Assembly (NCBI GenBank): GCA_041652735.1
Contig: JBAZGT010000009.1
Coordinates: 4,563-68,562, forward strand
Length of the DNA: 64,000 bases
Reading direction: 5' to 3'
Source of the DNA: Dehalococcoidales bacterium
Lineage (GTDB): Bacteria; Chloroflexota; Dehalococcoidia; Dehalococcoidales; RBG-16-60-22
Shown: positions 16,229-29,385 of the stretch, one piece after another
Numbering within the stretch: the stretch's first letter is position 1
How the letters are laid out: each line of letters opens with the position of its first letter
Translations under genes and position numbers: made by a program
The notes under the pieces: model-generated
Told to the model about the DNA's origin: nothing
The model's database searches: none
The model's input: the letters and a program-made list of their open reading frames with translations, nothing else

Positions 16229-16993
16229 TCAGGGGCGCAGGAAATAGCCAAAGCCGCGGGCGGTCAACAGGTGCTGCGGATTCACCGGGTCGGTTTCTAT
16301 CTTCTGGCGCAGTGACCATATGTGGGTATCGATAGTTCTTTCGTTGCCTTCATAGTTGAATCCCCATAGCCCTTGCACGATATCGTTCCTCTGGAATATT
16401 TTCCCGGCGTTTTTCGCCAGTAATGAAAGTATGGCGGATTCTCTCGGTGTAATGGGCACTACGCTGCCGTCCTGGCGTTTTAGCTGCTTGTTGGCGGTGT
16501 CAAGCTGATATTGCCCGATTTTTATCTTGACCGGCTCATCCGGATTTTTCACGGGTGCGGCGTGGCTGGAACGCCGGAGGTGATTCCAGATGCGGGCTAA
16601 TAATTCCCGACTGTAAAAAGGCTTGGCGATAAAATCATCCGCCCCGAGTTTGAAACAGGCAATCTTGTCATCTTCAGCGGTGTCGGTGGAAATGATGATA
16701 ATGGGAATATATGATTTTTTACGCATCATTTTGCAGATTGAATGTCCGTGAATATCCGGAAGCTGGATGTCCATAATTACAGCATCGGGATAACAGGCAT
16801 CGAACAGCATTAGTCCGTCTTTACCGTTTAAAGCGGGAATTACCTTAAAGTATTCCTCGGCCAGCGTCATCTTTATCTGTGACAGTGAAGGCTCGTCGCC
16901 GTCGATACAGAGTATTTTCTTCCGCTCTATGGTCGCGCTCATACGCTTAAGACCATCCGGTCCCCGCTGTAGCTGTCCGGTGCTTCGTGCCAT
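16229..16993 (-). CDS. OmpR/PhoB-family response regulator (last gene of the pst unit)
   Basis: Receiver domain (ILCIDGDE...VIMDIQLPD...) plus a winged-helix region (LTPRESAILSLLAKNAG...IDTHIWSLRQKIE). The start may be the internal M (MSATIERKK, 16942). There is no sensor kinase gene in the window. Confidence 0.85.
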   Translation of the reverse strand: MARSTGQLQRGPDGLKRMSATIERKKILCIDGDEPSLSQIKMTLAEEYFKVIPALNGKDGLMLFDACYPDAVIMDIQLPDIHGHSICKMMRKKSYIPIIIISTDTAEDDKIACFKLGADDFIAKPFYSRELLARIWNHLRRSSHAAPVKNPDEPVKIKIGQYQLDTANKQLKRQDGSVVPITPRESAILSLLAKNAGKIFQRNDIVQGLWGFNYEGNERTIDTHIWSLRQKIETDPVNPQHLLTARGFGYFLRP

Positions 16994-17007: not shown

Positions 17008-17769
17008 TTATTCTCCAAGAATCCAGTTGCGCCTGTTTTTCAGATATTCTTTTGTTTCCGGCTGTTGCGGGTTTTTAAAAACCTGTTTCGTTTCTCCGTA
17101 CTCGACCACCCTGCCGTCGGCCATAAAGACCAGAAAGTCGGAGATATTCAGGGCGTCGCTCATATTATGCGTGACCAGTACCTGCGTGTACTCGGTTTTC
17201 ATCTTTAAAATAGTGGACTCCAGCTGGGCGGTGGACACGGGGTCCAGGGAAGAAGAGGGTTCATCGAGCAGTATTACTTCAGGCGAAACGGACAGGGTAC
17301 GCGCGATGCACAAACGCTGCTGTTGCCCCAGTGAAAGCTCCAGCGCGCTGTCTTTAAGCCTTCCGCACAGTTCGTCCCACAGGGCGGCTTTCATCAGGCT
17401 GCTTTTCACGATTTCCTTGTGGTCGTATTTCCGGTTTCTGTCCGCTTTAAGGCCGTATACAACGTTGGACTGGATAGACATTGGAAACGGGTTCGGTCTC
17501 TGAAAAACCATCCCCACCCGCCGCCGCAGCAGAATAGGGTCAATCTGACGGATATCCATGCCGTCCAGCAGGATACTGCCCTTCACTTTACAGGAATTAC
17601 TCATCTCATTGAGGCGGTTTAGACAGCGCAATAAGGTGGTCTTGCCGCAACCGGATGGGCCGATGATGGCGGTAACCGCGCCCTTTTCTATATTAAGGTT
17701 GATGCCCTTGATTACGGCGGTGCCGCCATAATACACGTAAAGGTCCTTAATCGTTATACAAGCGGTCAT
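17008..17769 (-). CDS. pstB: phosphate ABC transporter ATP-binding protein
   Basis: Walker A GPSGCGKTT, LSLGQQQRLCIAR signature, Walker B ILLDEPSSSLD, and a PstB-typical length of 253 aa. Confidence 0.93.
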   Translation of the reverse strand: MTACITIKDLYVYYGGTAVIKGINLNIEKGAVTAIIGPSGCGKTTLLRCLNRLNEMSNSCKVKGSILLDGMDIRQIDPILLRRRVGMVFQRPNPFPMSIQSNVVYGLKADRNRKYDHKEIVKSSLMKAALWDELCGRLKDSALELSLGQQQRLCIARTLSVSPEVILLDEPSSSLDPVSTAQLESTILKMKTEYTQVLVTHNMSDALNISDFLVFMADGRVVEYGETKQVFKNPQQPETKEYLKNRRNWILGE

Positions 17770-17823: not shown

Positions 17824-19179
17824 CTACGCCTGATACCTTTTGGAGTAAGCGCGTTTAAGTATCAGCGAAGCCACGCCGAAGCTGAGGGTAATGATTATCA
17901 GCAACAAAGCCGCTGAATATTCGTAGCCCACCATCGTATCACGGAAAGACTTGGGCCCGCCGAAGTTTACATTGAAAATCAAATGGGAAAGTGATATTAC
18001 TTCAGAAAAAGGCCCGACCCCCGCTTCCCCGGTTGTAGCCATGAAGATCAATATAGATACGCTTCCGGCAGCCTCAGCGCATCCCAGCAGCCATCCCGTA
18101 ATGATGTTGGGCATACTCCACGGTAATAAGATATGAGTAAAAGTGTATCCCTGGGAAGCTCCCATCGCCAGCGAGCCTTCCTTCAGATGCAGCGGCACGG
18201 AGCGCAGGCCTTCTTCCGTGGCGCTGGCTATTAGCGGGATGACCAGCATGGATAGAAATATGGCCGAAAGGATAAACGACCCGTGGGCGATATGCTCGTA
18301 GCCGTTGGCATCCCGGTAATAGCCGGTAATAAATTTGGCGAGGGGGAAATCGTAATTATTCTCGGCCACTCTCACCAGGCTGTAAGCCGTGATGCCCAGA
18401 ATAAAAACAGAAACACCGCGCAGCGCCGTGGTACAAAAGCGTATTATCCCGGCGCTTTTTCCGGCATACTCGCTGATAAAGGCGCCGGTCCCGATACCCA
18501 CCGGGAGAGAAATTATGGACACCAGTATTATCAGCAATAATGTACCCAGGATATGGTTGCTCATCCCGACCTGCTTGCTGGCCTGGTCGTATGAGCTGGT
18601 GATAACCTGCCAATCAAGCTGCGGAACGCCTTCTATCATTAACCGGATTAACACCAGCAGATAACAAATGAGAACGATTAATACCGGGAAGACAATCACC
18701 GGGTATCTCGCTAAATCTTTCGCGCTTGGCGTCGCTCCCTTCAGAAAGAACAGCGCGTAGCTGAAAACAGGCAGCGCTGAAGCTAAAATAAAAACGGCGG
18801 AAACCACCGAACGATTTATGACGGCCTGACCGAGATTATAGTTTCCCACGCCCACCCCGCCCATGTTGAATGTCTCCGGTATCAGGCTGATGATAACGGG
18901 ATATATCACCGCTAAACCCGTTAAGAACATCATCTTTTTTGATATAGTATTTCTGATAATCCGGCTGGTAAACATTAACAGCAGATTGGCTGACGCCAGG
19001 ATTATCAGCAGCGGAATAGTGTACATATCAATTGTGTTTAGACTGATTGACAGGAAACCTATAACCAGGGCGGCTGAAGACACCAGCAAAACCATGCCGG
19101 GGATGATTTTATGCCATAACCCGTTCATTCCGTTTTTAAAATGCGGAGCCGTGGCGGTTGGGGATATTGTCGTGCTCAC
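17824..19179 (-). CDS. pstA: phosphate ABC transporter permease PstA (long form with N-terminal extra TM helices)
   Basis: 451 aa, polytopic. It carries an EAA-like loop (ATEEGLRSVPLHLKEGSLAMGAS). It overlaps pstC by 4 nt. Confidence 0.85.
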   Translation of the reverse strand: MSTTISPTATAPHFKNGMNGLWHKIIPGMVLLVSSAALVIGFLSISLNTIDMYTIPLLIILASANLLLMFTSRIIRNTISKKMMFLTGLAVIYPVIISLIPETFNMGGVGVGNYNLGQAVINRSVVSAVFILASALPVFSYALFFLKGATPSAKDLARYPVIVFPVLIVLICYLLVLIRLMIEGVPQLDWQVITSSYDQASKQVGMSNHILGTLLLIILVSIISLPVGIGTGAFISEYAGKSAGIIRFCTTALRGVSVFILGITAYSLVRVAENNYDFPLAKFITGYYRDANGYEHIAHGSFILSAIFLSMLVIPLIASATEEGLRSVPLHLKEGSLAMGASQGYTFTHILLPWSMPNIITGWLLGCAEAAGSVSILIFMATTGEAGVGPFSEVISLSHLIFNVNFGGPKSFRDTMVGYEYSAALLLIIITLSFGVASLILKRAYSKRYQA

Positions 19180-20117
19180 TTGATTGAAACCTTTTTAAGT
19201 CTTGAAGTTATTATCGTCAGCAGTATCATGATGCCGAAGGCTATTATCAGCAGAAAAAGCGCCGTAAGATAAGCGACCGCGCAGTCATAACCTTCACATG
19301 ACCCGCGTACCTGGAAACCGCCCGCCAGGTTGGCGGCGCTGGATGTCAGGGTGGGTGTTGATTCCAGGATGTCCCATAACGGATTGGTCATGTCCGGCGC
19401 GGCCGCCGGTCTTTCATAGCCGATGGCGAAGGTGACGATAATCAGGTCGCCGATTGCTTTTAAAGACCCCAGGCTTATGGCGGAAATAATGCCCGCCATT
19501 GAATTAGGAAGAGTAATGTGCCATAAGGTATGCCACCGGGACATACCCAGGGCCAGGGAGCCTTCTTTAAGCTCACGGGGGACGTTCTTTATCGCGTCAT
19601 CGATCAGCGGCGCCATAAATGGAATAATCATCAATGCCACCATGAGGCCGCCGAGGAGGGTGTTGTTATTGAGCGAGAACTTGGGCTTCATAATCAGCTC
19701 CACGAATACCACCATCAGCAGGGCGTACACTATCGGCGGTATTCCGGATAGCAGCGTGAGCGCGTTCCGTATGGAGCGGCTGACAACACCGAGGCGGAAC
19801 TCGGATGATATTACGGCCAGCGCCAGGGAAGCCGGCAGGGCGATCCCCAGGGCAAGTATTACCACCATGACCGTGCCCCAGATAGCCGGCAGCATGCCGT
19901 AGACATGAGTGGAAGCGGTGAATTTTCCCACGAACTCCGTGGAGAATATTTCTCCTATCCCGATACCTTTGATGGCCGGCATACTCTGCCAAACCGTCAG
20001 GCTGATAACCGCCAGCAGCATCAGGACGGGTACCGCGGTCAGCAGAAAAGAGATGCCTTTGGGCCAGGACCTCATCCAGGGCCTGGTCTCGCCGAATATG
20101 GAGTTCAGGTGAGGCAT
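19176..20117 (-). CDS. pstC: phosphate ABC transporter permease PstC
   Basis: 313 aa, 6 TM, EAA loop DDAIKNVPRELKEGSLALGMSRW. It starts 6 nt after the preceding cohesin-anchor gene. Confidence 0.85.
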   Translation of the reverse strand: MPHLNSIFGETRPWMRSWPKGISFLLTAVPVLMLLAVISLTVWQSMPAIKGIGIGEIFSTEFVGKFTASTHVYGMLPAIWGTVMVVILALGIALPASLALAVISSEFRLGVVSRSIRNALTLLSGIPPIVYALLMVVFVELIMKPKFSLNNNTLLGGLMVALMIIPFMAPLIDDAIKNVPRELKEGSLALGMSRWHTLWHITLPNSMAGIISAISLGSLKAIGDLIIVTFAIGYERPAAAPDMTNPLWDILESTPTLTSSAANLAGGFQVRGSCEGYDCAVAYLTALFLLIIAFGIMILLTIITSRLKKVSIK

Positions 20118-20123
20118 GCCGTC

Positions 20124-20903
20124 CTAAGACCGCTTTCCTTTTCTTACCACGATAGCGATTACCACCCCGACCACCACCACGCCGGCCACTACGCCGATGA
20201 CGATGCCGGTGGGGAATGAAGAGTCTTTTTCCGCCTGGCTATCAGTTCCCGGCTGGCTGGTTCCCGGCTGACTATCGGTAGCCCCGGACGCGGAACCCGC
20301 CGTGATTACGGCATCGCTTATGACCAGCTCCGGCGCTTTTACGCTATTATAGCCATCCAGATCATAGACGCTGGCGGTGATATCGACTGACCCCGTGCTG
20401 TCTTTAAGATTGCTCGTAGCTATGCTTATATCGGCCTGTCCGTTAGCTATTACTTCAAAAGAATAACGGGCTATAACGCCGCTCCCTTTTACCCCGCTGA
20501 AAGAGGCGATGCCGATGATATCCACATAACCTATATCATTGTATATACCGGACTCGATTGACGGCAGGTCCGGCATGCTGGGCCCGGTTATCATGCTGTC
20601 CGGGGGGAAAAGAGCGTCCGCCGGCATTTCCACGGCTTTACACTTTAGTATTTTAGAGCTGAAACTCAGGGCGAACTGTACGCCGGAGCAGTCATAGTCG
20701 CTGGGAAGCTGCAAATAGACATCGACATCGAATTTGTCTCCCTTGGAAACCTGTAAATCGGATTGAATGCCCGCGGCTGCTGTGTCCGTATCAACACTTA
20801 ATTGAAATCCTGTTTCCGCCATTACCGGCTGGGAGAGCAGTCCCAAGCCCAGCAGGATTACACCCATAAGGCTGATTACTTTTATCTTTATTTTTCCTGG
20901 CAT
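20124..20903 (-). CDS. membrane-anchored cohesin-like protein (signal peptide, one cohesin-like module, S/T/Q/P linker, C-terminal TM anchor)
   Basis: SP LLGLGLLSQPVMA. Module: KGDKFDVDVYLQLPSDYDCSGVQFALSFSSKILKCKAVEM...GVIARYSFEVIANGQADISI. Linker: GSASGATDSQPGTSQPGTDSQ. TM: GIVIGVVAGVVVVGVVIAIVV followed by RKGKRS. Confidence 0.65.
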   Translation of the reverse strand: MPGKIKIKVISLMGVILLGLGLLSQPVMAETGFQLSVDTDTAAAGIQSDLQVSKGDKFDVDVYLQLPSDYDCSGVQFALSFSSKILKCKAVEMPADALFPPDSMITGPSMPDLPSIESGIYNDIGYVDIIGIASFSGVKGSGVIARYSFEVIANGQADISIATSNLKDSTGSVDITASVYDLDGYNSVKAPELVISDAVITAGSASGATDSQPGTSQPGTDSQAEKDSSFPTGIVIGVVAGVVVVGVVIAIVVRKGKRS

Positions 20904-20945: not shown

Positions 20946-21548
20946 CTATCTCGCCTTTTTCCTGCAGGCCAGCAATAAATACATCACGATTCCCGCTCCG
21001 AATATCGACACCAGAATCAGCATCAGCGTAGACCAGGGAAATGCTTTTATTGCTGCCGCGAGCGCCGGCGGAGCCGCCACCGTATAGTAGACCTTGGTGG
21101 TGGCATCCAGGTCAAAAAACGCCCCCTGTACTCCGGTGACCCGGTGAGCGCTGATATATGCCAGATAAGTGCCCGGCTCGGTATCGGGCGGTAATTCCAG
21201 CGTCAGCTGTATGGATTGTTCTCCGCTGGGTTTCAGCAGGAACGGTTCTTGCGGATTAATGCGTAAATAATCGCCTGATTTGTATTTAGCGGCGTTTGTT
21301 TCCGATATTTCAGCGATGAAATAGCCGTCTACCTTTCCGGGATTCAGGACGATAATATTGGGTAACCTGTATATTTTGCCGCTTTCGAGCGGCTCATCGA
21401 CACGCACTATGCCGGGCACGATGCCTACGCCCATTTCAGTCCCGCCCCTGGCCGGGAACGGGCTCATCTGTATACTTATAATCACCAGTAAAATGGCCGC
21501 GGCCGCCTGGATAAATTTGCCCGCTATGTTCTTCTTATGGGTTTTCAT
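20946..21548 (-). CDS. secreted single-domain protein with C-terminal TM anchor
   Basis: 200 aa. Signal/anchor AAAAILLVIISIQ, an Ig-like body ending in the PPDTEPGTYLAYISAH motif, then TM LMLILVSIFGAGIVMYLLL plus CRKKAR. Confidence 0.6.
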   Translation of the reverse strand: MKTHKKNIAGKFIQAAAAILLVIISIQMSPFPARGGTEMGVGIVPGIVRVDEPLESGKIYRLPNIIVLNPGKVDGYFIAEISETNAAKYKSGDYLRINPQEPFLLKPSGEQSIQLTLELPPDTEPGTYLAYISAHRVTGVQGAFFDLDATTKVYYTVAAPPALAAAIKAFPWSTLMLILVSIFGAGIVMYLLLACRKKAR

Positions 21549-23262
21549 GGGTGGTCGCCTGCAAAGAAATACGTATATTGTGTGGATTGGGGTCTACCGA
21601 GTAGGTAGGCATGAAGATTTTTAGGTCGAAGGTTGCGGTCTGGTCCGGCTTCAGGGCCTGAATCAGCGGCTGATAATCACGCTTCAGGTTAATCCACGTG
21701 GTATTACTGTTCAGGCGCACCTGGTGAGAATACTGTTCATCGCCCGGCGTATCGGCGAGGTACCAGGTGATGCCGTTGTCCCTGGTAGCGTCGGAGCTTT
21801 TTATATCGATATCGATGGTAACTTCGCCGGTATTCTTGACCGTTTGCGTGTCCCACATATCCACGGTACTGCGGGAACCGCCGAATTCTATCGTGCCGTA
21901 TTCTATTAACCCGTCATCGACGGAAAAACTGATGATAACGGCGGCGGCGACGGTGCAATTGATATTCACTTCAGCGGCCATATACGGGTCGCTGACGGAG
22001 CCGGTGTTATTATTTTCCAGGGCTTCCGTAACGGCATCTTCATAATCTACGTAGATTTCCACGATATCTGAATCGCCGGAAACCGTAAATACATAATTCT
22101 GGAAGTTGCCTTCCAGTTCAGCGCCGATACCGAGACTACTGACCGTCTCGGTAATCTGCGGAGAGCTCGAACCGTCCACAAAAGCGCCCACTTTAAAGGC
22201 AGGCGCTTCAAGACTGCCCTGGTTCTTGACCGTGTAATTTATCCGGTAGGCCAGCTGGCCTTCATCCAGTTCCTTGGCTTCAAAATCGGTCAAAACCAGG
22301 TCGGCCATCTGGGGCCATATATAGACGGCCGTGTTATTGTTTTCCGATGACTCTTCCACGATGCCCGTGCCGTCACACTTCAAGGTTATCGCGTCCACGG
22401 TATCTGATAGCGTCACCTCCAGGCCGTTGAAATTCCCCTGGTAGGAATCGCCGGCTGCCAGCACAGGTACCGTCTCGGTGGCCAGCGCCTGGGTCTGGTT
22501 ATCGATAAATAATTGGGCCTGTGATGCCGCCGCATCGGCATCGCCCTGGTTGGTGATGGTGTAATCAATTGAGTACAGACCCGTTTCCTGGTCCAGCCAG
22601 GCAGCCGCCAGGTGGGTAATGGCCAGGTCCGGCATCGGCTCGCCGGTGCCTACCGTCACGGTCCCGTTTTGAATGGTCATTTGCGATTCCGGGGGCAGGG
22701 GCGGCGGCGGCGACTGCAATAGCGCATCGGAACCATCCTGATTGGATATGCTGCTGCCGACGATATTGATATCCGTGGTACCGTTGGTGATGGCTTTGAA
22801 CGTATAACGCGCCATCACACCGCTGCCGTGAGCGGTAGTGGTAAAGGAACTGGGGCCGGTATTATTCGTCTGGCCGGGTGTGCTTACGTCAAAAGCTACA
22901 AAAACCTGGAATGAGGGGGCGGGATAAAGGTAGAAGCTATCGCTCCCCACGTTCACGGCCTGGCATTGGATTATGCTTGGGTCCCAGGTTAGCTGGGCGC
23001 AGGCGCCGCATGACTCATAGCCGCCGGCCAGTTTTATCCAGAGGTCCACATTAAAAGTGGTCCCGGCGGTGATAATAGTACTGGATTGGATATCGCCATC
23101 GCCGGAGGCGACGCAATCGATACTGATACTGGGAGCCGGAGGGGCGGCATCGGCCAAAACAGGCTCCGCTTTACGGCTGACGCCCAGTCCCAGGCTTAAA
23201 ACCGTTACCAGTATCAGGCCTATTTGAAAAACAAGTCTTATTTGCGTCCTGGTCAATAACAT
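21535..23262 (-). CDS. secreted cohesin-like / 2x CARDB-like / C-terminal beta-domain protein
   Basis: SP. Cohesin-like module (TAGTTFNVDLWIKLAGGYESCGACAQLTWDPSIIQCQAVNVG...GVMARYTFKAITNGTTDINI). Two CARDB-like repeats (PDLAITHL...ITNQGDADA...ESSENNNTA and ADLVLTDF...VKNQGSLEA...ALENNNTG). An unclassified 150-aa C-terminal domain. No TM anchor. Confidence 0.7.
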   Translation of the reverse strand: MLLTRTQIRLVFQIGLILVTVLSLGLGVSRKAEPVLADAAPPAPSISIDCVASGDGDIQSSTIITAGTTFNVDLWIKLAGGYESCGACAQLTWDPSIIQCQAVNVGSDSFYLYPAPSFQVFVAFDVSTPGQTNNTGPSSFTTTAHGSGVMARYTFKAITNGTTDINIVGSSISNQDGSDALLQSPPPPLPPESQMTIQNGTVTVGTGEPMPDLAITHLAAAWLDQETGLYSIDYTITNQGDADAAASQAQLFIDNQTQALATETVPVLAAGDSYQGNFNGLEVTLSDTVDAITLKCDGTGIVEESSENNNTAVYIWPQMADLVLTDFEAKELDEGQLAYRINYTVKNQGSLEAPAFKVGAFVDGSSSPQITETVSSLGIGAELEGNFQNYVFTVSGDSDIVEIYVDYEDAVTEALENNNTGSVSDPYMAAEVNINCTVAAAVIISFSVDDGLIEYGTIEFGGSRSTVDMWDTQTVKNTGEVTIDIDIKSSDATRDNGITWYLADTPGDEQYSHQVRLNSNTTWINLKRDYQPLIQALKPDQTATFDLKIFMPTYSVDPNPHNIRISLQATTHENP

Positions 23263-23278
23263 ACTCTACTCCGATTGT

Positions 23279-24343
23279 TTATCTTCCCCGCCTACGGGAA
23301 ACGATTATAAATATTGTCATGCCCACGGTTACTACGGAGGCGAAGACCGCTATCATGGTATACCACGGGAAAGCCAAGACCTTTTCCTGTTCCATGTCGC
23401 CCAGCACTGCGGTGTTGCCGTAATCACGGAGCAGCCTTTCCTGCTCATCCGGCGGCAGGGTTGGCGTTGCCTCTTCTTTTAAAGGCTCCAGCACTTCAAA
23501 TTCAGCTTCCCGGCTGTCTATAAGCTCATCTACCGTATTTCCGCTAGCATCGGCGGCGGGATGGTATACGCTGGATTTCATCCTGTATTTCCCGGCCGGC
23601 AGTCCTTCCTGTAATGTCTGGGTAAAGCGGAAGGAGAACTCGGGAACGATTGAACTCGTGGTGAGTGAAGTATTGCTGGAGATTACCATTTCCCCGCTGG
23701 AATTACGTATCTCTAACGCGTTATAAGCTTTATAATGATGGTTTCCCGTGTTTTTTACGATTGTCTGAATCGGTATAGGCTCACCGGATGGCACGGTTTC
23801 CGCCATCAGGTCGGTTATCTCGCCTTGATGTGTGAGCCCGGCGTTTACCGGCGTTAAGATAACCGGGACCTTTATTCCCTGAGCGAAATCCATGCTTTCC
23901 ATGGAGCTTTCCGGGTAAGCCAGGACGTAAATAAGGGCATACAACGTGCCGTCTTCATTAAAATCATCCGGTATTTTTATGGTGAATTTGGCCTCTTGTT
24001 CCTCGCCGCCCTTCAGGGTGAAAGAGGCGTTTTCTATGTTGCTTATATAAGGAAGGGCGGTAAAGGGGGAAATATCGTGGATTTCGTCCAGTACTTCGTA
24101 GATGCCGTCCAGGTTTTGCCCGAAACCGGCTGATAAGATATTGACTATCAGCGCCGGGTCATTGGCCTTACTTGAAACGAATATCTCGTGGGTGTATGAC
24201 TGCCCGGCCTGGACATCGATATCACAGATGCCGTTGCGGACACGCAGCGACGGGCCATCCGCCTGGACCGGAATGACGCCCAGGAGCTGTAGCCCCAAGC
24301 CCAGTAATAATACGATAATTGGCGATATTATTTTCTTCATCAA
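23279..24343 (-). CDS. secreted two-module protein with C-terminal TM anchor
   Basis: 354 aa. SP LLLGLGLQLLGVIPVQA, two Ig-like modules, an acidic linker, then TM YTMIAVFASVVTVGMTIFIIV plus SRRRGR. It is the first gene after the Pho-type promoter. Confidence 0.65.
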   Translation of the reverse strand: MMKKIISPIIVLLLGLGLQLLGVIPVQADGPSLRVRNGICDIDVQAGQSYTHEIFVSSKANDPALIVNILSAGFGQNLDGIYEVLDEIHDISPFTALPYISNIENASFTLKGGEEQEAKFTIKIPDDFNEDGTLYALIYVLAYPESSMESMDFAQGIKVPVILTPVNAGLTHQGEITDLMAETVPSGEPIPIQTIVKNTGNHHYKAYNALEIRNSSGEMVISSNTSLTTSSIVPEFSFRFTQTLQEGLPAGKYRMKSSVYHPAADASGNTVDELIDSREAEFEVLEPLKEEATPTLPPDEQERLLRDYGNTAVLGDMEQEKVLAFPWYTMIAVFASVVTVGMTIFIIVSRRRGR

Positions 24344-24466: not shown

Positions 24467-24505
24467 CAAAAAAGAAGGAGGGATGGACTGAAATAGTCCA
24501 CCCCC
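24467..24505 (-). terminator. rho-independent terminator after the 828-aa scaffold gene
   Basis: The minus strand reads GGGGTGGACT-atttc-AGTCCATCCC (one mismatch), followed by TCCTTCTTTTTTGG. Confidence 0.6.
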
Positions 24506-24532
24506 CCCCGCGTTATACGGAATTGCCGGTGT

Positions 24533-27019
24533 TTAGAAAACTACCCCGGCGTTGAAGGTTACGCATATGTAGTAAACGTTACCGTTGGTTAGCATGGCGT
24601 CAGCCCACTCCACTTCCTGGCTGAAAGTAATCTGGAAATTTTCGCCCAGATTGCCGTTTTGCCCGTCAGTGTCGCCTTCGCAAATCATCCCCGGCCCCGC
24701 CAGTATCACGGTGAAACTGCCGCACTTGATGATCATGGCATGGTTCAATTTTTCCGGGTTATCAGCGAAAGTGCTGCCGTTCCATTCGGTCATAAAGCCG
24801 TTGGAAATGGAATCTGCATCGCTGACATCTACCTGCCAGGGAACGTTGCTCTTGATGTTCAGTGTGCCGCTAGCCGTGTTGATGCCGATGGTAAGGTGCC
24901 AGGAATCGATATCACTCGGACTGGTAAGCTCGATATCGGCCATGACATTACCGTTGATATCCGTCGTGTCGGAATCGCTTTCATAGGATATCAGGTTGGT
25001 TTTGATGTTGTTGCCCTCATTGGACTCAACAACCAGGCCGGTGCTGTCCGCGGTGATGGTGATGATATCGTAAATACCCACCAGGTTGAAAGGCCCGACG
25101 GCGGTATAGGTCTTCTTCTGTCCGGCCGCCAGGCCGCCGGTTACCGTCACGTTTTTGGTCTGGGCGGGGTCGCCATTGCTCACGGAAACGATGAATTCCG
25201 GGGCGGCCAGGTCGCCGATGTTTTCCACCGTGAAATTAACCCGGTAAGAAACTCCATCGGATATCCAGGTCTCCGCCTTGTAGTTGACGACGATGTCAGG
25301 AAGACCGAACAGGTCGGTGGCGGTGTTGTTGTTTTCGTTCGACTCCGTGATATCCATGATGTAGTCGGCGATGACGGTTATTTCATCGGAGCCGTCGGAT
25401 AGGGTGAAGGGGCCCTTGGTGATATTGGCGCTCGCGCCGCCCACCAGGTTGTTGGGGAACTGGGCGAGAGTAATGAAAGCGCCGTCAATCAGGATACCGC
25501 ACTGGTTGGCTTCGTGCGCGGTAGCCGTGCCGCCGCCGATGTTCTTCACGGTGAAAGAGATGTTGTAGGTCCCGCTACCCTGGTCTACCCACGTTTCATT
25601 AAGGTTTTCGATGGTCAGGTCAGGCAGGGTGGAGGCGGTGATGTTTACGCTGTCGTTATAAACATTCAGGTCAGGTTCGGTAATGGGATTGCCCACATCA
25701 TCGGAGAGGCTGGGGGTGATGAGGCTGATGGCGGCAACGCCGGCGGCCTTCGCTTTGAACTCGTATCTCATGAAGACCTTATTGGTGGAGCTGTCGCCGG
25801 GCAGGTAAAGCAGACCGGTGATAGCTACCTGGCCGGTAGTGTTATTGATGCCGCCGTTGGCAATGGTCGGAAGCTCCGCCAGGGGGCCTACCACGAGGGA
25901 CGGAGGGACCGGATATTTGTAAGGAGCCCCGCTCCCCACGGTTACGGATTTGCATTCCAGTTTATTCTGGTCAAAAGAGAGCGCCGCCGCGGCGCCGGAA
26001 GAAACGAAGCCGCTGGGTACGGTCACCTCGACATCTACGTTGAAGGTAGAGTAAAGGTCGGCGTTGGTCGGGGCGTTGACCGTCATGGCATAAGCGGCGA
26101 AGATGCTGGTCATGGTGTTGTTGGTCTCGTTTTCTTCGGTGATGTCTTCATTACTATCCGCGAAGACGATGATAGTGTCCGTGCCGCCGGTCATGGTAAT
26201 GGGCCCGACGGTCTGTACGGGAGTGCTGGCGCCAGCCGCCAGGTTGCCCAGGGTTACGGAGCCGGCAGCCGGGGTGATGTCCGGGTCGCTGTCCGGGTAA
26301 ACGCCGGTTATCCAGCTGCTGGTGATATCGGCCGCGCCCTGGTTCTTGACGACGAACTTGACCTGGTAGGTGCCCGCATCCGGGTTTATCCATTCCGCGT
26401 ACTGCTGGGTGACGATCAGGTCCGGTCTAGGCTGGGCCACGGTGATGGAACCGCCCTGCACGTTCAGGCCGGATCCCTGGAGAATAGGAGATTCGCCACT
26501 AGGGTCCGACACGCTGGCGCCGACGATGTTGATGTTGGTGCTGCCCGCGCCGATGGCATGGAAGGTGTACCGGGCCATCACGCCGCTGCCCTGGGCGGTG
26601 GCGGAAGAGGAGCTGGGGCCGGTATTATTCGTTTGCCCCGGGGTGGTCAGGTTGAAGGCAACGGCTAAGGAGAATGGCGGAGACGGGAAAAGATAGGGGG
26701 CGGCGCTGCCTATAGTCGCTGCCGTGCACTCCAGCACAGCCGGGTCCCAGGTGAGCTGGGCGGCCGCGCCGGCGGACTCAAAGCCGCTTTCAAGTGATAC
26801 CCATGCGTCTACATCAAAAGACTCACCGATAGCTACCGTTCTGGTCTGCTGTATGTTTCCATCGCCTGAGACGGTGCAATCAATGCTCATGCTCGGCGCC
26901 GCTGGCGGTGCGTCAGCGTAGGCGGCGGCGGCGGGGAGCAAAAATGCAGTGAGAGTCACTATCCCGGCGGCAGCTAAACTGATAGCTTTTGCCCTTATTT
27001 TTTTAAGAGAGCTATTCAA
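24533..27019 (-). CDS. large secreted scaffold protein: cohesin-like / CARDB / cohesin-like / CARDB / CARDB / C-terminal beta-domain
   Basis: 828 aa. SP LTAFLLPAAAAYA. Cohesin-like 1 (IGESFDVDAWVSLESGFESAGAAAQLTWDPAVLECTAATIG...). Cohesin-like 2 (YSTFNVDVEVTVPSGFVSSGAAAALSFDQNKLECKSVTVG...). Three CARDB-like repeats, each starting PDL/PDI and ending E(E/S)NE(T/N/G)NN. The C-terminal domain has SWHL and PWQVDV motifs. No TM anchor. Confidence 0.75.
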   Translation of the reverse strand: MNSSLKKIRAKAISLAAAGIVTLTAFLLPAAAAYADAPPAAPSMSIDCTVSGDGNIQQTRTVAIGESFDVDAWVSLESGFESAGAAAQLTWDPAVLECTAATIGSAAPYLFPSPPFSLAVAFNLTTPGQTNNTGPSSSSATAQGSGVMARYTFHAIGAGSTNINIVGASVSDPSGESPILQGSGLNVQGGSITVAQPRPDLIVTQQYAEWINPDAGTYQVKFVVKNQGAADITSSWITGVYPDSDPDITPAAGSVTLGNLAAGASTPVQTVGPITMTGGTDTIIVFADSNEDITEENETNNTMTSIFAAYAMTVNAPTNADLYSTFNVDVEVTVPSGFVSSGAAAALSFDQNKLECKSVTVGSGAPYKYPVPPSLVVGPLAELPTIANGGINNTTGQVAITGLLYLPGDSSTNKVFMRYEFKAKAAGVAAISLITPSLSDDVGNPITEPDLNVYNDSVNITASTLPDLTIENLNETWVDQGSGTYNISFTVKNIGGGTATAHEANQCGILIDGAFITLAQFPNNLVGGASANITKGPFTLSDGSDEITVIADYIMDITESNENNNTATDLFGLPDIVVNYKAETWISDGVSYRVNFTVENIGDLAAPEFIVSVSNGDPAQTKNVTVTGGLAAGQKKTYTAVGPFNLVGIYDIITITADSTGLVVESNEGNNIKTNLISYESDSDTTDINGNVMADIELTSPSDIDSWHLTIGINTASGTLNIKSNVPWQVDVSDADSISNGFMTEWNGSTFADNPEKLNHAMIIKCGSFTVILAGPGMICEGDTDGQNGNLGENFQITFSQEVEWADAMLTNGNVYYICVTFNAGVVF

Positions 27020-27079: not shown

Positions 27080-28264
27080 TTACTGGGGGGCGATCCACGA
27101 GCGCCCGAGTCTCTTGCCGACGACGACGACATCACCGATATCCACGGCGCCGTTGCCGTTAGCGTCCTTGTGATTGGTGGGATACCAGCCGGACTGCCCG
27201 AGCGCGCGTCCGACGACGACGACGTCACCGATGTCGCAAGCCCTGTTATTGTTCTGGTCCCAGTACAGGGTCTGGGTTACGGCGGTTATGGCATCGTTGG
27301 TGGGTAGTTTGACATACCCCTCGTCAACAACGATAGCCTGGCCCTCGGAGCTAAGTATCCAGTTGACGTAATCAAGGGCTTCAAGCTTGTAGGTGTTGCC
27401 GCCGGTCCTGTCAAAATCCGGGTGCCGGGTGTATAAGTAAAGGAGACGTGACAGCGGGTAGGTGCCGTTACCCACGGTGGTCTGGCTGCACTGTATGGGA
27501 GTGCCGCTGCTGTTCTGGACGGGAATAGTGGTAATTCCGGGAGTAGTGAGGAAACCGAGACCGCAGTAACCTATCTGCGATTCCTCGTGCGTGGGCGCCG
27601 GTGATTCTACCATGCCGGCGATGGCGCTCGCCATGGTGTCATTGCTTTCCAGCCTGTTAAGGCCGGTAGCATCCACCGCTAGCTCTTCTCCCGCTTCGGT
27701 GGCGGAGCCTATCAGGCTCAGGAATGAAGACCGGGTGCCGGAATCTGTAATCCTGGCGCGCGGGATGATGGGATATAGAGACCCGTGAGTACCGGTATAC
27801 CCTGAAAGGCTGTCCCAGTATACTATATCGTTGCCCTGGTAGATATTGTAAAGTTCCACCTTGGTAATGGAAGTGACGCTGCCGTGGATATAAGCGGAAA
27901 GTCCGTCGTTTACGATGACGGCGATTCCGTCCCAGGCTATCTTGGTTTCAAAGACCTTGTTGATATCGTAGCTTGATTCCAGTACTTTGGAACGCATGGC
28001 GATATCGCACTGGGCGGGTTCGGTGAAGAGGGCTACGGAGCCCTGGCCGGAACCGCCGCCCTGGTATTGCAGGTCGATGTTGGGGAAGTCGGACTCGAAT
28101 TGAATTTCGCTGCCGTTTACAATGGGATAAACGGTGGTGGAACCTTTTAGTAGTATACCGACCGGGGCGGCCAGCGCCGGGATAGAGGTTACGAGGATGA
28201 CACCGAGCATCAAGAGGACGCCCAACAGTGCCAATAAAGACTTCTTGCCTTTCAATTTAATCAA
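27080..28264 (-). CDS. PstS-family phosphate-binding protein with C-terminal dockerin-like module
   Basis: SP ending PALA-AP with no lipobox Cys. PstS blocks GSTTVYP, GGGSGQG, DIAMRS, GIAVIVN, DSGTRSSF, GTYPLSRLLYLY. A C-terminal duplicated Ca-loop segment. TTG start with a GGAGGAG SD. Confidence 0.8.
   Translation of the reverse strand: MIKLKGKKSLLALLGVLLMLGVILVTSIPALAAPVGILLKGSTTVYPIVNGSEIQFESDFPNIDLQYQGGGSGQGSVALFTEPAQCDIAMRSKVLESSYDINKVFETKIAWDGIAVIVNDGLSAYIHGSVTSITKVELYNIYQGNDIVYWDSLSGYTGTHGSLYPIIPRARITDSGTRSSFLSLIGSATEAGEELAVDATGLNRLESNDTMASAIAGMVESPAPTHEESQIGYCGLGFLTTPGITTIPVQNSSGTPIQCSQTTVGNGTYPLSRLLYLYTRHPDFDRTGGNTYKLEALDYVNWILSSEGQAIVVDEGYVKLPTNDAITAVTQTLYWDQNNNRACDIGDVVVVGRALGQSGWYPTNHKDANGNGAVDIGDVVVVGKRLGRSWIAPQ
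27083..27259 (-). other. dockerin-like module (two 21-22 aa Ca-loop/helix repeats)
   Basis: DQNNNRACDIGDVVVVGRALG - 10-aa linker - DANGNGAVDIGDVVVVGKRLG. Both follow D-x-N-x-N-x3-D-x-x-D plus a hydrophobic helix. Confidence 0.7.
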
Positions 28265-28523: not shown

Positions 28524-28557
28524 AAAAAAACGCCCCGGTCTTTTTACTGACGGGGCG
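28524..28557 (-). terminator. rho-independent terminator after lipoprotein pstS
   Basis: The minus strand reads CGCCCCGTC-loop-GAC(C)GGGGCG followed by TTTTTTT. Confidence 0.65.
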
Positions 28558-28584
28558 CTGGATATGCCGGGTGAACGGGCTGTT

Positions 28585-29385
28585 TTAGCCTAACCTGAAA
28601 TAGCCTTCCCTTTCCGCGATGGCCTGCCCTTCCGGCCCCTGGCAAAAGTCCAGGAAATCACGGACACAAGACTTGACATTACCGCGGGTCAGTAATAAAA
28701 GCCTTCTGGTTATGGGATAGGTGCCGTCCTGGAGGGTTTCCAGTGAAGGCTTTATGCCGTTCAGCGTCAGCACTTTGACCGAATCATCCGCGTAAGCCAG
28801 GGATACATAGCCTATCGCCCGCAGGTCTTCAGCGATAACGGTACGCAACGCGCCGTTGCTGGCCTGCAGGATGGCGGTATCCGCGAAATAGGTGCCCGGC
28901 AAGACCGTCTCCAGGAAAGTCTGCTGCGTGCCGGAGCCTTCCTCGCGGGAGACCACGGTAATCTTACCGGACATGCCGCTGACTTCACTCCAGTCCGTAA
29001 TTACCCCGGAGAATATATCCCGCAGCTGCTCCATGGTCAGTCCCGTTATCTGGTTTCCCGGGTTGACGATAACGGCGATGGAGTCTATGGCGATAGGGTA
29101 CTGCTTGACCGGCTTGGCCTCGCTTTCCGTCAACTCCCGTGAGGAGGCCCCTATGTCCACGATGCCGTTGCATACCGAAGAAATACCGCTGCTGGAACCG
29201 CCCCCGGCGACAGTGATTTTTACGTCCGGGTGCAGTCCCATGTATTCTTCTGCCATCACTTCCATCAGCGGCTGGACCGTCGTCGACCCGCTCTCATGTA
29301 TTGTTGTTTCCCCGCTGCTGCATCCGGGCGCCGCCAGCATCAGGCAAATAATGACGATGGCGACTATCGACTTTAGATTTTTCAT
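28585..29385 (-). CDS. pstS: phosphate ABC transporter substrate-binding lipoprotein
   Basis: Lipobox MLAAPGC; PstS blocks GSTTVQP, GGGSSSG, DIGASSR, GSGTQQTF, GTYPITRRLLLL; 266 aa. Confidence 0.9.
   Translation of the reverse strand: MKNLKSIVAIVIICLMLAAPGCSSGETTIHESGSTTVQPLMEVMAEEYMGLHPDVKITVAGGGSSSGISSVCNGIVDIGASSRELTESEAKPVKQYPIAIDSIAVIVNPGNQITGLTMEQLRDIFSGVITDWSEVSGMSGKITVVSREEGSGTQQTFLETVLPGTYFADTAILQASNGALRTVIAEDLRAIGYVSLAYADDSVKVLTLNGIKPSLETLQDGTYPITRRLLLLTRGNVKSCVRDFLDFCQGPEGQAIAEREGYFRLG

Follow-up and report, generated by a model that had tools for sequence, protein, structure and literature searches.

A PstS-type binding protein with a C-terminal dockerin, encoded beside cohesin genes in a Dehalococcoidales pst gene string

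The pst gene string and the PstS-dockerin protein

A 64,000-nucleotide stretch of DNA from an uncultured Dehalococcoidales bacterium (contig JBAZGT010000009.1; hereafter the window) carries on its minus strand a phosphate-transport (pst) gene string in which one PstS-type binding protein ends in a dockerin module. The genes follow each other in the order pstS for a probable lipoprotein, the gene of the dockerin-tailed protein (PstS-dockerin), genes for proteins of 828, 354, 575, 200 and 259 amino acids (aa), pstC, pstA (451 aa), pstB and a response regulator gene (Table 1). PstS-dockerin is the sole open reading frame (ORF) with dockerin-type repeats in the window, and its one dockerin faces four cohesin modules in the 828-, 575- and 259-aa proteins. 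The intergenic spacing from the 354-aa gene to the response regulator gene is −14 to 54 nt. The two terminator-like hairpins would, as read from the sequence, give three transcripts, one for the lipoprotein PstS, one for PstS-dockerin and the 828-aa protein, and one that begins with the 354-aa gene and extends over pstCAB to the response regulator gene. A sigma-70 promoter scan returned 13 candidates with 14.2 expected, which is not above chance.

Table 1. Features of the PstS-dockerin locus in window coordinates
Feature	Position	Strand	Evidence and remarks
Canonical PstS, probable lipoprotein (LAAPGC)	28585..29385	-	TIGR02136 234.6 bits, above cut-off; N-terminus
Terminator-like hairpin and U7 after lipoprotein pstS	28529..28559	-	dG -18.1, z -4.19
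PstS-dockerin gene, 394 aa	27080..28264	-	signal peptide residues 1-32, PstS-type domain ~33-325, dockerin ~334-390
Sec signal peptide, residues 1-32	28169..28264	-	cleavage PALA-AP, without lipobox Cys; read from sequence
PstS-type (PBP_like_2) binding domain	27290..28168	-	phosphate-site motifs S42-T43-T44, S72, D87/S92, R171, S175-G176-T177
Dockerin module, two Ca-loop and helix segments	27083..27259	-	residues 336-356 = 27197..27259; residues 367-387 = 27104..27166
828-aa secreted protein	24533..27019	-	cohesin 1 (~26435..26902), CARDB, cohesin 2 (~25637..26098), two CARDB, conserved C-terminal domain; without transmembrane helix
Terminator-like hairpin and U-run after 828-aa gene	24475..24509	-	dG -25.8, z -4.14
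354-aa protein	23279..24343	-	signal peptide, ectodomain, C-terminal transmembrane helix; conserved cassette member
575-aa secreted protein	21535..23262	-	cohesin (~22648..23145), two CARDB, C-terminal domain
200-aa protein	20946..21548	-	signal peptide, small ectodomain, C-terminal transmembrane helix
259-aa cohesin protein	20124..20903	-	signal peptide, cohesin (~20295..20828), S/T/P/Q linker, transmembrane residues 227-257 (~20133..20225), RKGKRS
pstC permease	19176..20117	-	starts 6 nt after 259-aa gene
Long pstA-like permease, 451 aa	17824..19179	-	N-terminal extension
pstB ATPase	17008..17769	-	sequence; PstB homologues at same position in related cassettes
OmpR/PhoB-type response regulator	16229..16993	-	end of gene string; sequence; Response_reg and Trans_reg_C homologues in L001

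PstS-dockerin is present as a preliminary description of this DNA had given it, a 394-aa ORF with a cleavable signal peptide and no lipobox cysteine. Translation starts at a TTG codon with the Shine-Dalgarno sequence GGAGGAG 4 nt upstream. The K-rich N-terminus and a hydrophobic core (residues 9-28) lead to PALA-AP as in a typical Sec signal, and a lipobox is absent because the first Cys is C86. A pseudogene or artefact was ruled out, as the ORF is intact, has a strong Shine-Dalgarno sequence and is conserved in at least 10 genomes. The fusion protein of locus L010 (P0217, NCBI MGB8214465.1) is annotated only as 'substrate-binding domain-containing protein', and relatives go under 'phosphate transport system substrate-binding protein' at JGI. 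No public annotation of the fusion proteins flags their dockerin, so that databases at present do not reveal it.

Pfam PBP_like_2 (PF12849) matched residues 33-307 of the fusion protein with E=3.7e-20 and 73.3 bits (threshold 27), and the solved structures nearest to the domain are all phosphate-binding proteins (4pqj/4omb at 1e-12, 1twy and 4gd5). All PstS motifs quoted in the preliminary description were found, namely GSTTVYP (41-47), GGGSGQG (69-75), DIAMRS (87-92), GIAVIVN and GTYPLSRLLYLY, and alignments of fusion proteins with canonical PstS revealed invariant columns at G41-S42-T43-T44, G71-S72, S92, R171 and S175-G176-T177. The phosphate contacts of E. coli PstS (T10/F11, S38, D56, R135 and S139-T141) have equivalents in the fusion protein that were mapped by alignment only. 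The N-terminal part thus matches PstS models, as had been proposed, and the conservation of the phosphate-contact motifs makes phosphate the most likely ligand, judging from sequence.

The 59-aa tail proved to be duplicated as previously described. Its segments DQNNNRACDIGD (residue 336) and DANGNGAVDIGD (residue 367) both have the loop positions D1/N3/N5/D9/D12 and are identical at 15 of 21 residues, compared with 10 of 21 for the best 21-mer self-match in 200 shuffles of the protein. This is the sequence pattern of Dockerin_1 (PF00404), defined by two tandem segments of ~22 residues, each composed of a 12-residue EF-hand-like Ca loop (D1, N/D3, N/D5, D12) and a helix. Searched alone against the PDB, the window tail matched best a dockerin from outside cellulosomes, that of C. 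perfringens NagH (E=1e-4). Only four full-length relatives of the fusion protein were present in a 5.8-billion-protein index, all with the same tail, and precomputed PF00404 matches exist for two of the four. P0004 has a confident precomputed match. Dockerin_1 matched 10 of 12 fusion-protein tails (best 3.2e-11), and the top ~20 matches of a tail profile against the PDB were all dockerins (best 2.6e-7), with calmodulins appearing from ~1e-3.

Structure prediction, which had been suggested as a check on the tail, gave a concordant picture. The AlphaFold2 model (18-sequence alignment; predicted local distance difference test (pLDDT) 85.6, predicted template modelling score (pTM) 0.71) consists of two loop-helix units, in which a loop precedes each of the helices (positions 16-24 and 47-54 in a tail of 65 aa). 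The top 20 Foldseek matches of the model in the PDB were all dockerins, including 2y3n_B with template modelling (TM) scores of 0.77/0.82 and a root-mean-square deviation of 1.8 Å, whereas calmodulin and troponin reached TM-scores of ~0.25 only; owing to the small size of the domain (65 residues), the E-values of the Foldseek matches are weak (>=0.025). Orthologue Pfam matches, profile matches to solved dockerins and the predicted fold together indicate that the tail is a dockerin.

The reading of the tail as a generic EF-hand-like Ca-binding pair, or as a chance repeat without docking function, is extremely improbable and largely refuted. It could appeal to the window tail staying under the Pfam Dockerin cut-off, to EF-hand models that also match 3 of 12 tails and to the calmodulins in the profile search. 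However, dockerins come ahead of EF-hands by three to four orders of magnitude in E-value, the TM-scores to dockerins are 0.6-0.8 against ~0.25 for calmodulin and troponin, the repeat lies far beyond chance, and cohesin genes always accompany the tail. Assignment to another repeat class was rejected likewise, with the EF-hand matches being weaker and no thrombospondin-type match appearing, so the refuting outcome named in the preliminary description, a generic EF-hand or thrombospondin type 3 tail, did not occur.

Near-identical halves in cellulosomal type I dockerins accompany a dual binding mode, and by comparison the near-identical halves of this tail suggest that it may bind in two modes as well. 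A Cys at position 8 of the first dockerin loop is frequent, occurring in the window (C343, ~27236), P0002, L007, L012, P0100 and P0101.

Cohesin modules and the conserved cassette

The four modules that the preliminary description had called cohesin-like are mutually homologous (BLASTP 1e-11 to 1e-59) and match modules adjoining the fusion gene in other genomes. A profile built from 17 such modules hit cohesins only in the PDB (12 matches, best 4.6e-9), and Pfam Cohesin (PF00963) was matched by 13 of the 17 homologous modules (best 9.6e-12). When a model of the 259-aa protein's module was compared with the PDB, the top 49 matches were all cohesins (E=1e-9, TM-score up to 0.77), A. fulgidus 2xdh included. 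By profile, the four neighbouring modules are true cohesins, and the fold modelled for the 259-aa module agrees. The dockerin and cohesin modules are not assignable to type I, II or III, since by sequence the dockerins come closest to type I and the cohesins to type II, and their best fold matches differ again. An invariant Cys in an L-x-C motif runs through 17 of 17 cohesin modules (C60 in the 259-aa module, ~20670); together with the Cys of the dockerin loop it might conceivably form an intermolecular disulfide lock.

The three cohesin proteins differ in how they could be attached to the cell. The 259-aa protein, with a signal peptide, a cohesin, a linker, a transmembrane helix and the basic tail RKGKRS, is by this architecture a membrane-anchored cohesin, whereas the 828- and 575-aa proteins have signal peptides and no transmembrane helix. 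The C-terminal domains of the latter two (last ~215 aa, 24533..~25180, and last ~160 aa, 21535..~22015, respectively) gave no Pfam match, and they may attach these scaffolds to the cell, possibly via the 354- or 200-aa proteins. Cassette proteins of L001, L007, L012 and L015 share the C-terminal domain of the 828-aa protein (phmmer 1e-21 to 1e-47). The 354-aa protein has a faint Pfam match to the WxL-interacting-protein domain (E=0.038) that allows no family assignment; the 200-aa protein resembles it in topology and has no Pfam match, and relatives of the two are found in L001 (12316-13284), L007 (3797-5410), L012 (12668-14212) and L015 (2409-5117). Read-through from the dockerin into the first cohesin of the 828-aa gene would be in frame, with two stop codons between.

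When one genome per species was scanned in a pattern-limited way, at least 10 genomes proved to carry the fusion. Chloroflexota account for nearly all of them (Dehalococcoidia, Anaerolineales and a 'Chloroflexia' metagenome-assembled genome (MAG)), besides two fusion contigs of 1.5 kb binned as Bacillota. The PurL encoded in the window is 85% identical to that of the peat MAG SPRUCE-103. Mapping of the loci with hidden Markov models (HMMs) revealed that the fusion gene adjoins cohesin-module genes throughout, that in every cassette one or more of the cohesin proteins end in a transmembrane anchor, and that the cassette runs on into pstC, a long pstA and pstB in six loci; the pstC/pstA/pstB string of the window recurs in L001, L002, L010, L015 and L018. 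Cohesin ORFs were present in 8 of 8 fusion loci of at least 8 kb; the plain PstS loci that the scan had also returned, 59 in number and about 1 Mb in all, contained none (Fisher p=1.5e-10). The PstA of the cassettes is unusually long (451-491 aa), with a hydrophobic N-terminal extension of ~190 aa (L002 19922-21178, L010 18493-19881, L018 13293-14765). This long form accompanies the cohesin cassette, whereas the extra, canonical pstSCAB operons of L002 and L010 have a PstA of normal size.

The exclusive linkage of cohesin and fusion genes bears on the question of whether the dockerin might be real but have its partner encoded elsewhere, the neighbouring cohesins mainly holding other dockerin proteins. 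Such proteins are plentiful. An exhaustive HMM search of the tail profile against 1.84 billion representative proteins returned 10,032 with such a dockerin at E<=1e-3 and 708 at <=1e-10, among them Dehalococcoidia metallophosphoesterases, PKD proteins and beta-helix proteins, and related cassettes themselves encode more, namely a 997-aa DUF7901-GEVED-CARDB-dockerin protein (P0140) in L002 (14271-17261), a 287-aa protein in L007 (223-1083) and a 615-aa protein in L018 (9180-11024). The strict and exclusive position of cohesin genes beside the fusion gene argues against a remote partner, as does the placement of the PstS-dockerin gene and the two-cohesin 828-aa gene 60 nt apart between the two terminator-like hairpins, and we consider this alternative very unlikely. 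The L018 protein combines two cohesins with its dockerin and resembles an adaptor scaffoldin.

The preliminary description had also paired PstS-dockerin with a canonical lipoprotein PstS 320 bp upstream. The distance and the PstS identity of that protein (Table 1) held up. Its status as a lipoprotein is likely and not certain, because its lipobox L-A-A-P-G-C (29320..29385 region) has Pro at −2; the usual consensus is L-[AS]-[GA]-C. In L007 (11294-12352), L010 (16216-17361) and L015 (8599-9675) the gene directly upstream of pstC encodes a divergent PstS-like protein (353-382 aa) whose lipobox is clear, for example LATGCGS or FLAGCGP. The pairing of one lipid-anchored with one dockerin-tagged binding protein, as proposed for the window, therefore recurs in three other cassettes, with a gene order unlike that of the window.

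Proposed docking at the cell surface and its alternatives

The occurrence of a dockerin on PstS-dockerin and of cohesin-bearing surface proteins next to it in the Pst operon suggests that docking, not a lipid anchor, probably keeps the protein on the cell surface. In the mechanism that we propose, the dockerin of the secreted PstS-type protein would bind, in a Ca2+-dependent manner, the cohesins of the co-encoded surface proteins. One candidate partner is the 259-aa protein, which presents a single cohesin on a short linker and a membrane helix and whose gene stands directly before pstC; the others are the 828-aa protein with two cohesins and the 575-aa protein with one, both of which would form long CARDB-rich stalks. 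This non-covalent tether would replace the lipid anchor. With it, a single copy or several copies of PstS-dockerin would stay at the surface of the cell close to PstCAB and deliver phosphate to this importer, in parallel with the conventional lipid-anchored PstS. That the dockerin tethers the PstS-type protein to the neighbouring cohesins, feeding PstCAB, is the reading we favour and regard as likely.

Several observations weigh against it. In the Pfam check suggested by the preliminary description, PBP_like_2 passed, and Dockerin_1 stayed below threshold on the window tail alone (19.6 bits, cut-off 22.9; E=0.001, model positions 3-56 of 57 covered), the orthologous tails supplying the matches noted above. 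The window's cohesin modules alone likewise score 16-18 bits against 24.1 for Pfam Cohesin, the 259-aa module giving no match, and the all-beta model of the 259-aa module is of only moderate confidence (pLDDT 67.8, pTM 0.69). Membership of the window tail and cohesins in their families accordingly draws on orthologues, profiles and models. The binding domain reaches 102.3 bits with TIGR02136 (the NCBIfam PstS family; cut-off 206.6) and 30.6 bits with TIGR00975 (cut-off 205); the first score, being below the curated cut-off, places it in a divergent PstS-like subfamily and not in PstS at the curated level, and with this score and the insertions in the domain its ligand could differ. Because of the terminator-like hairpins, PstS-dockerin and pstCAB may lie on different transcripts, and the true partners of the cohesins could be dockerin proteins from other parts of the genome. 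Finally, what the analysis displays directly is which domains are encoded, that the cassette is conserved and that cohesin genes are linked exclusively to the fusion gene; from this we infer the cohesin-dockerin pairing, the phosphate ligand and the delivery to PstCAB.

The divergence of the domain and its insertions could also mean that docking is real and that the docked PstS-like domain serves no transporter, being instead the active head of a surface complex that, for instance, adheres to minerals or polymers containing phosphate, stores phosphate at the surface or acts as a sensor. A canonical lipid-anchored PstS is already available at the locus, the scaffolds bear adhesion-type CARDB domains, and the hairpins may uncouple the fusion and 828-aa genes from pstCAB. 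In addition, the nearest solved structures, 4omb and 4pqj, are P. aeruginosa PstS, a protein that reportedly has a phosphate-independent role in biofilms. Set against this are the joining of the cassette to pstC, pstA and pstB in six loci, the invariance of the phosphate-site motifs and the membrane-anchored cohesin gene abutting pstC, which make a role other than that of a receptor unlikely.

Specialised uptake of another ligand (phosphite, an organophosphate, arsenate or another oxyanion) through the long-PstA transporter is an alternative that we consider distinctly unlikely. The sub-cut-off PstS score, the unusual length of the cassette PstA and the existence of a separate canonical pstSCAB operon in L002 and L010 would all fit it. 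All phosphate-contacting motif positions of PstS-type proteins are nevertheless conserved in the fusion domain, and the families and structures that it matches best are without exception those of phosphate-binding proteins.

Known systems and the wider dockerin family

The preliminary description implied that a dockerin on the binding protein of an ATP-binding cassette (ABC) transporter would be new, which was an overstatement. Dockerins on ABC substrate-binding proteins have been described in anaerobic methanotrophic (ANME) archaea (Chadwick et al. 2022, PMC9012536). The main text of that paper names NikA/OppA and TroA types only, and the PstS case is an uncommented row of its S4 Data, in which the ANME-2a protein HOHHFJHI_01811 combines PstS (residues 2-279, TIGR02136 252.9 bits) with a type I dockerin (residues 284-339); the architecture therefore has genomic precedent. 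In both cases a non-cellulolytic anaerobe encodes cohesins together with a secreted substrate-binding protein that ends in a dockerin, and both are known from genome annotation alone. They differ in host, archaeal there and bacterial (Dehalococcoidales) here, and no operon with cohesin genes between pstS and pstC is described for ANME (PMC9012536). Since the ANME PstS is canonical (252.9 bits) and the present domain divergent (102 bits), the fusions probably arose independently.

In the clostridial cellulosome (1ohz, 2ccl, 4fl4), too, a duplicated Ca-loop/helix dockerin is found at the C-terminus of secreted proteins, its halves being near-identical in type I dockerins with dual binding mode, and proteins with one to three cohesins, some of them cell-anchored, receive it. 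Here, in contrast, the cargo is a transporter binding protein, and the anchor is a C-terminal transmembrane helix and not an S-layer homology (SLH) domain or sortase. The cassette was found to encode CARDB and cohesin domains only, with no glycoside hydrolase or carbohydrate-binding domains. Membership in a cellulosome was rejected on this ground and because the sole dockerin of the window sits on PstS; by analogy, the locus would work like a cellulosome-type assembly without being one.

Cohesin-dockerin pairs outside cellulose degradation are represented by C. perfringens NagH/NagJ (2ozn, 2jnk) and by the A. fulgidus cohesin (2xdh), but these systems assemble toxins and glycosidases or have no known function, and none is tied to an ABC importer. 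As for the tethering of receptors, single-membrane bacteria use lipoprotein PstS or fusion to the permease (GlnPQ, OpuA). The presumed purpose is the same, that is, to keep the receptor near the transporter in the absence of a confining outer membrane, and the upstream PstS of the window takes the lipid route. The module considered here differs in being a reversible protein-protein one on separate scaffolds, which would permit several receptors per anchor and their placement off the membrane.

No paper on a PstS-dockerin protein or a Chloroflexota cohesin-pst cassette was found in a search without subscription journals. The apparently new elements are a bacterial host lineage, a PstS subfamily that has diverged and, most importantly, a conserved operon whose pstS and pstCAB are separated by genes for cohesin scaffolds, a membrane anchor among them. 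The role of cohesins and dockerins outside cellulose degraders has been open for decades, though the modules are widespread, and this locus offers a compact test case with one dockerin, four cohesins, a cargo of known biochemistry and a known destination in PstCAB. If the favoured reading is true, reversible and multivalent docking would constitute a third tether for ABC-transporter receptors in single-membrane bacteria, with a bearing on how slow-growing Dehalococcoidia of peat and sediment compete for scarce phosphate.

A wider proposal, which we offer tentatively as possible though somewhat doubtful, is that the cassette encodes a cellulosome-like phosphate-harvesting surface machine built into the operon of a Pst importer, whose scaffolds, some anchored in the membrane and others extended with multiple cohesins, display several PstS-dockerin copies and, in some lineages, dockerin-tagged phosphoesterases that release phosphate beside the transporter; if true, non-cellulosomal cohesin-dockerin modules would gain a defined function. 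Among the 150 closest tails of the census, PstS fusions number ~10, and a Pfam survey of 74 single-dockerin proteins among the closest tails counted 16 with PKD, 6 with PBP_like_2, 5 with beta-helix and 5 with purple-acid-phosphatase-like metallophosphoesterase domains, besides others. The proteins P0210, P0220 and P0205 are metallophosphoesterases of this kind with the same dockerin subtype. P0210 is labelled 'Dehalococcoidia bacterium' by NCBI (MAG) and had no close relative in the genome collection searched for cohesin/pst neighbours. In L004 an alkaline phosphatase gene (848-2383) is found at a distance of 1.3 kb from the gene of P0004. The dockerin-tagged phosphoesterases and the nearby alkaline phosphatase hint at a phosphate-acquisition theme, in which phosphate-releasing enzymes may dock on like scaffolds.

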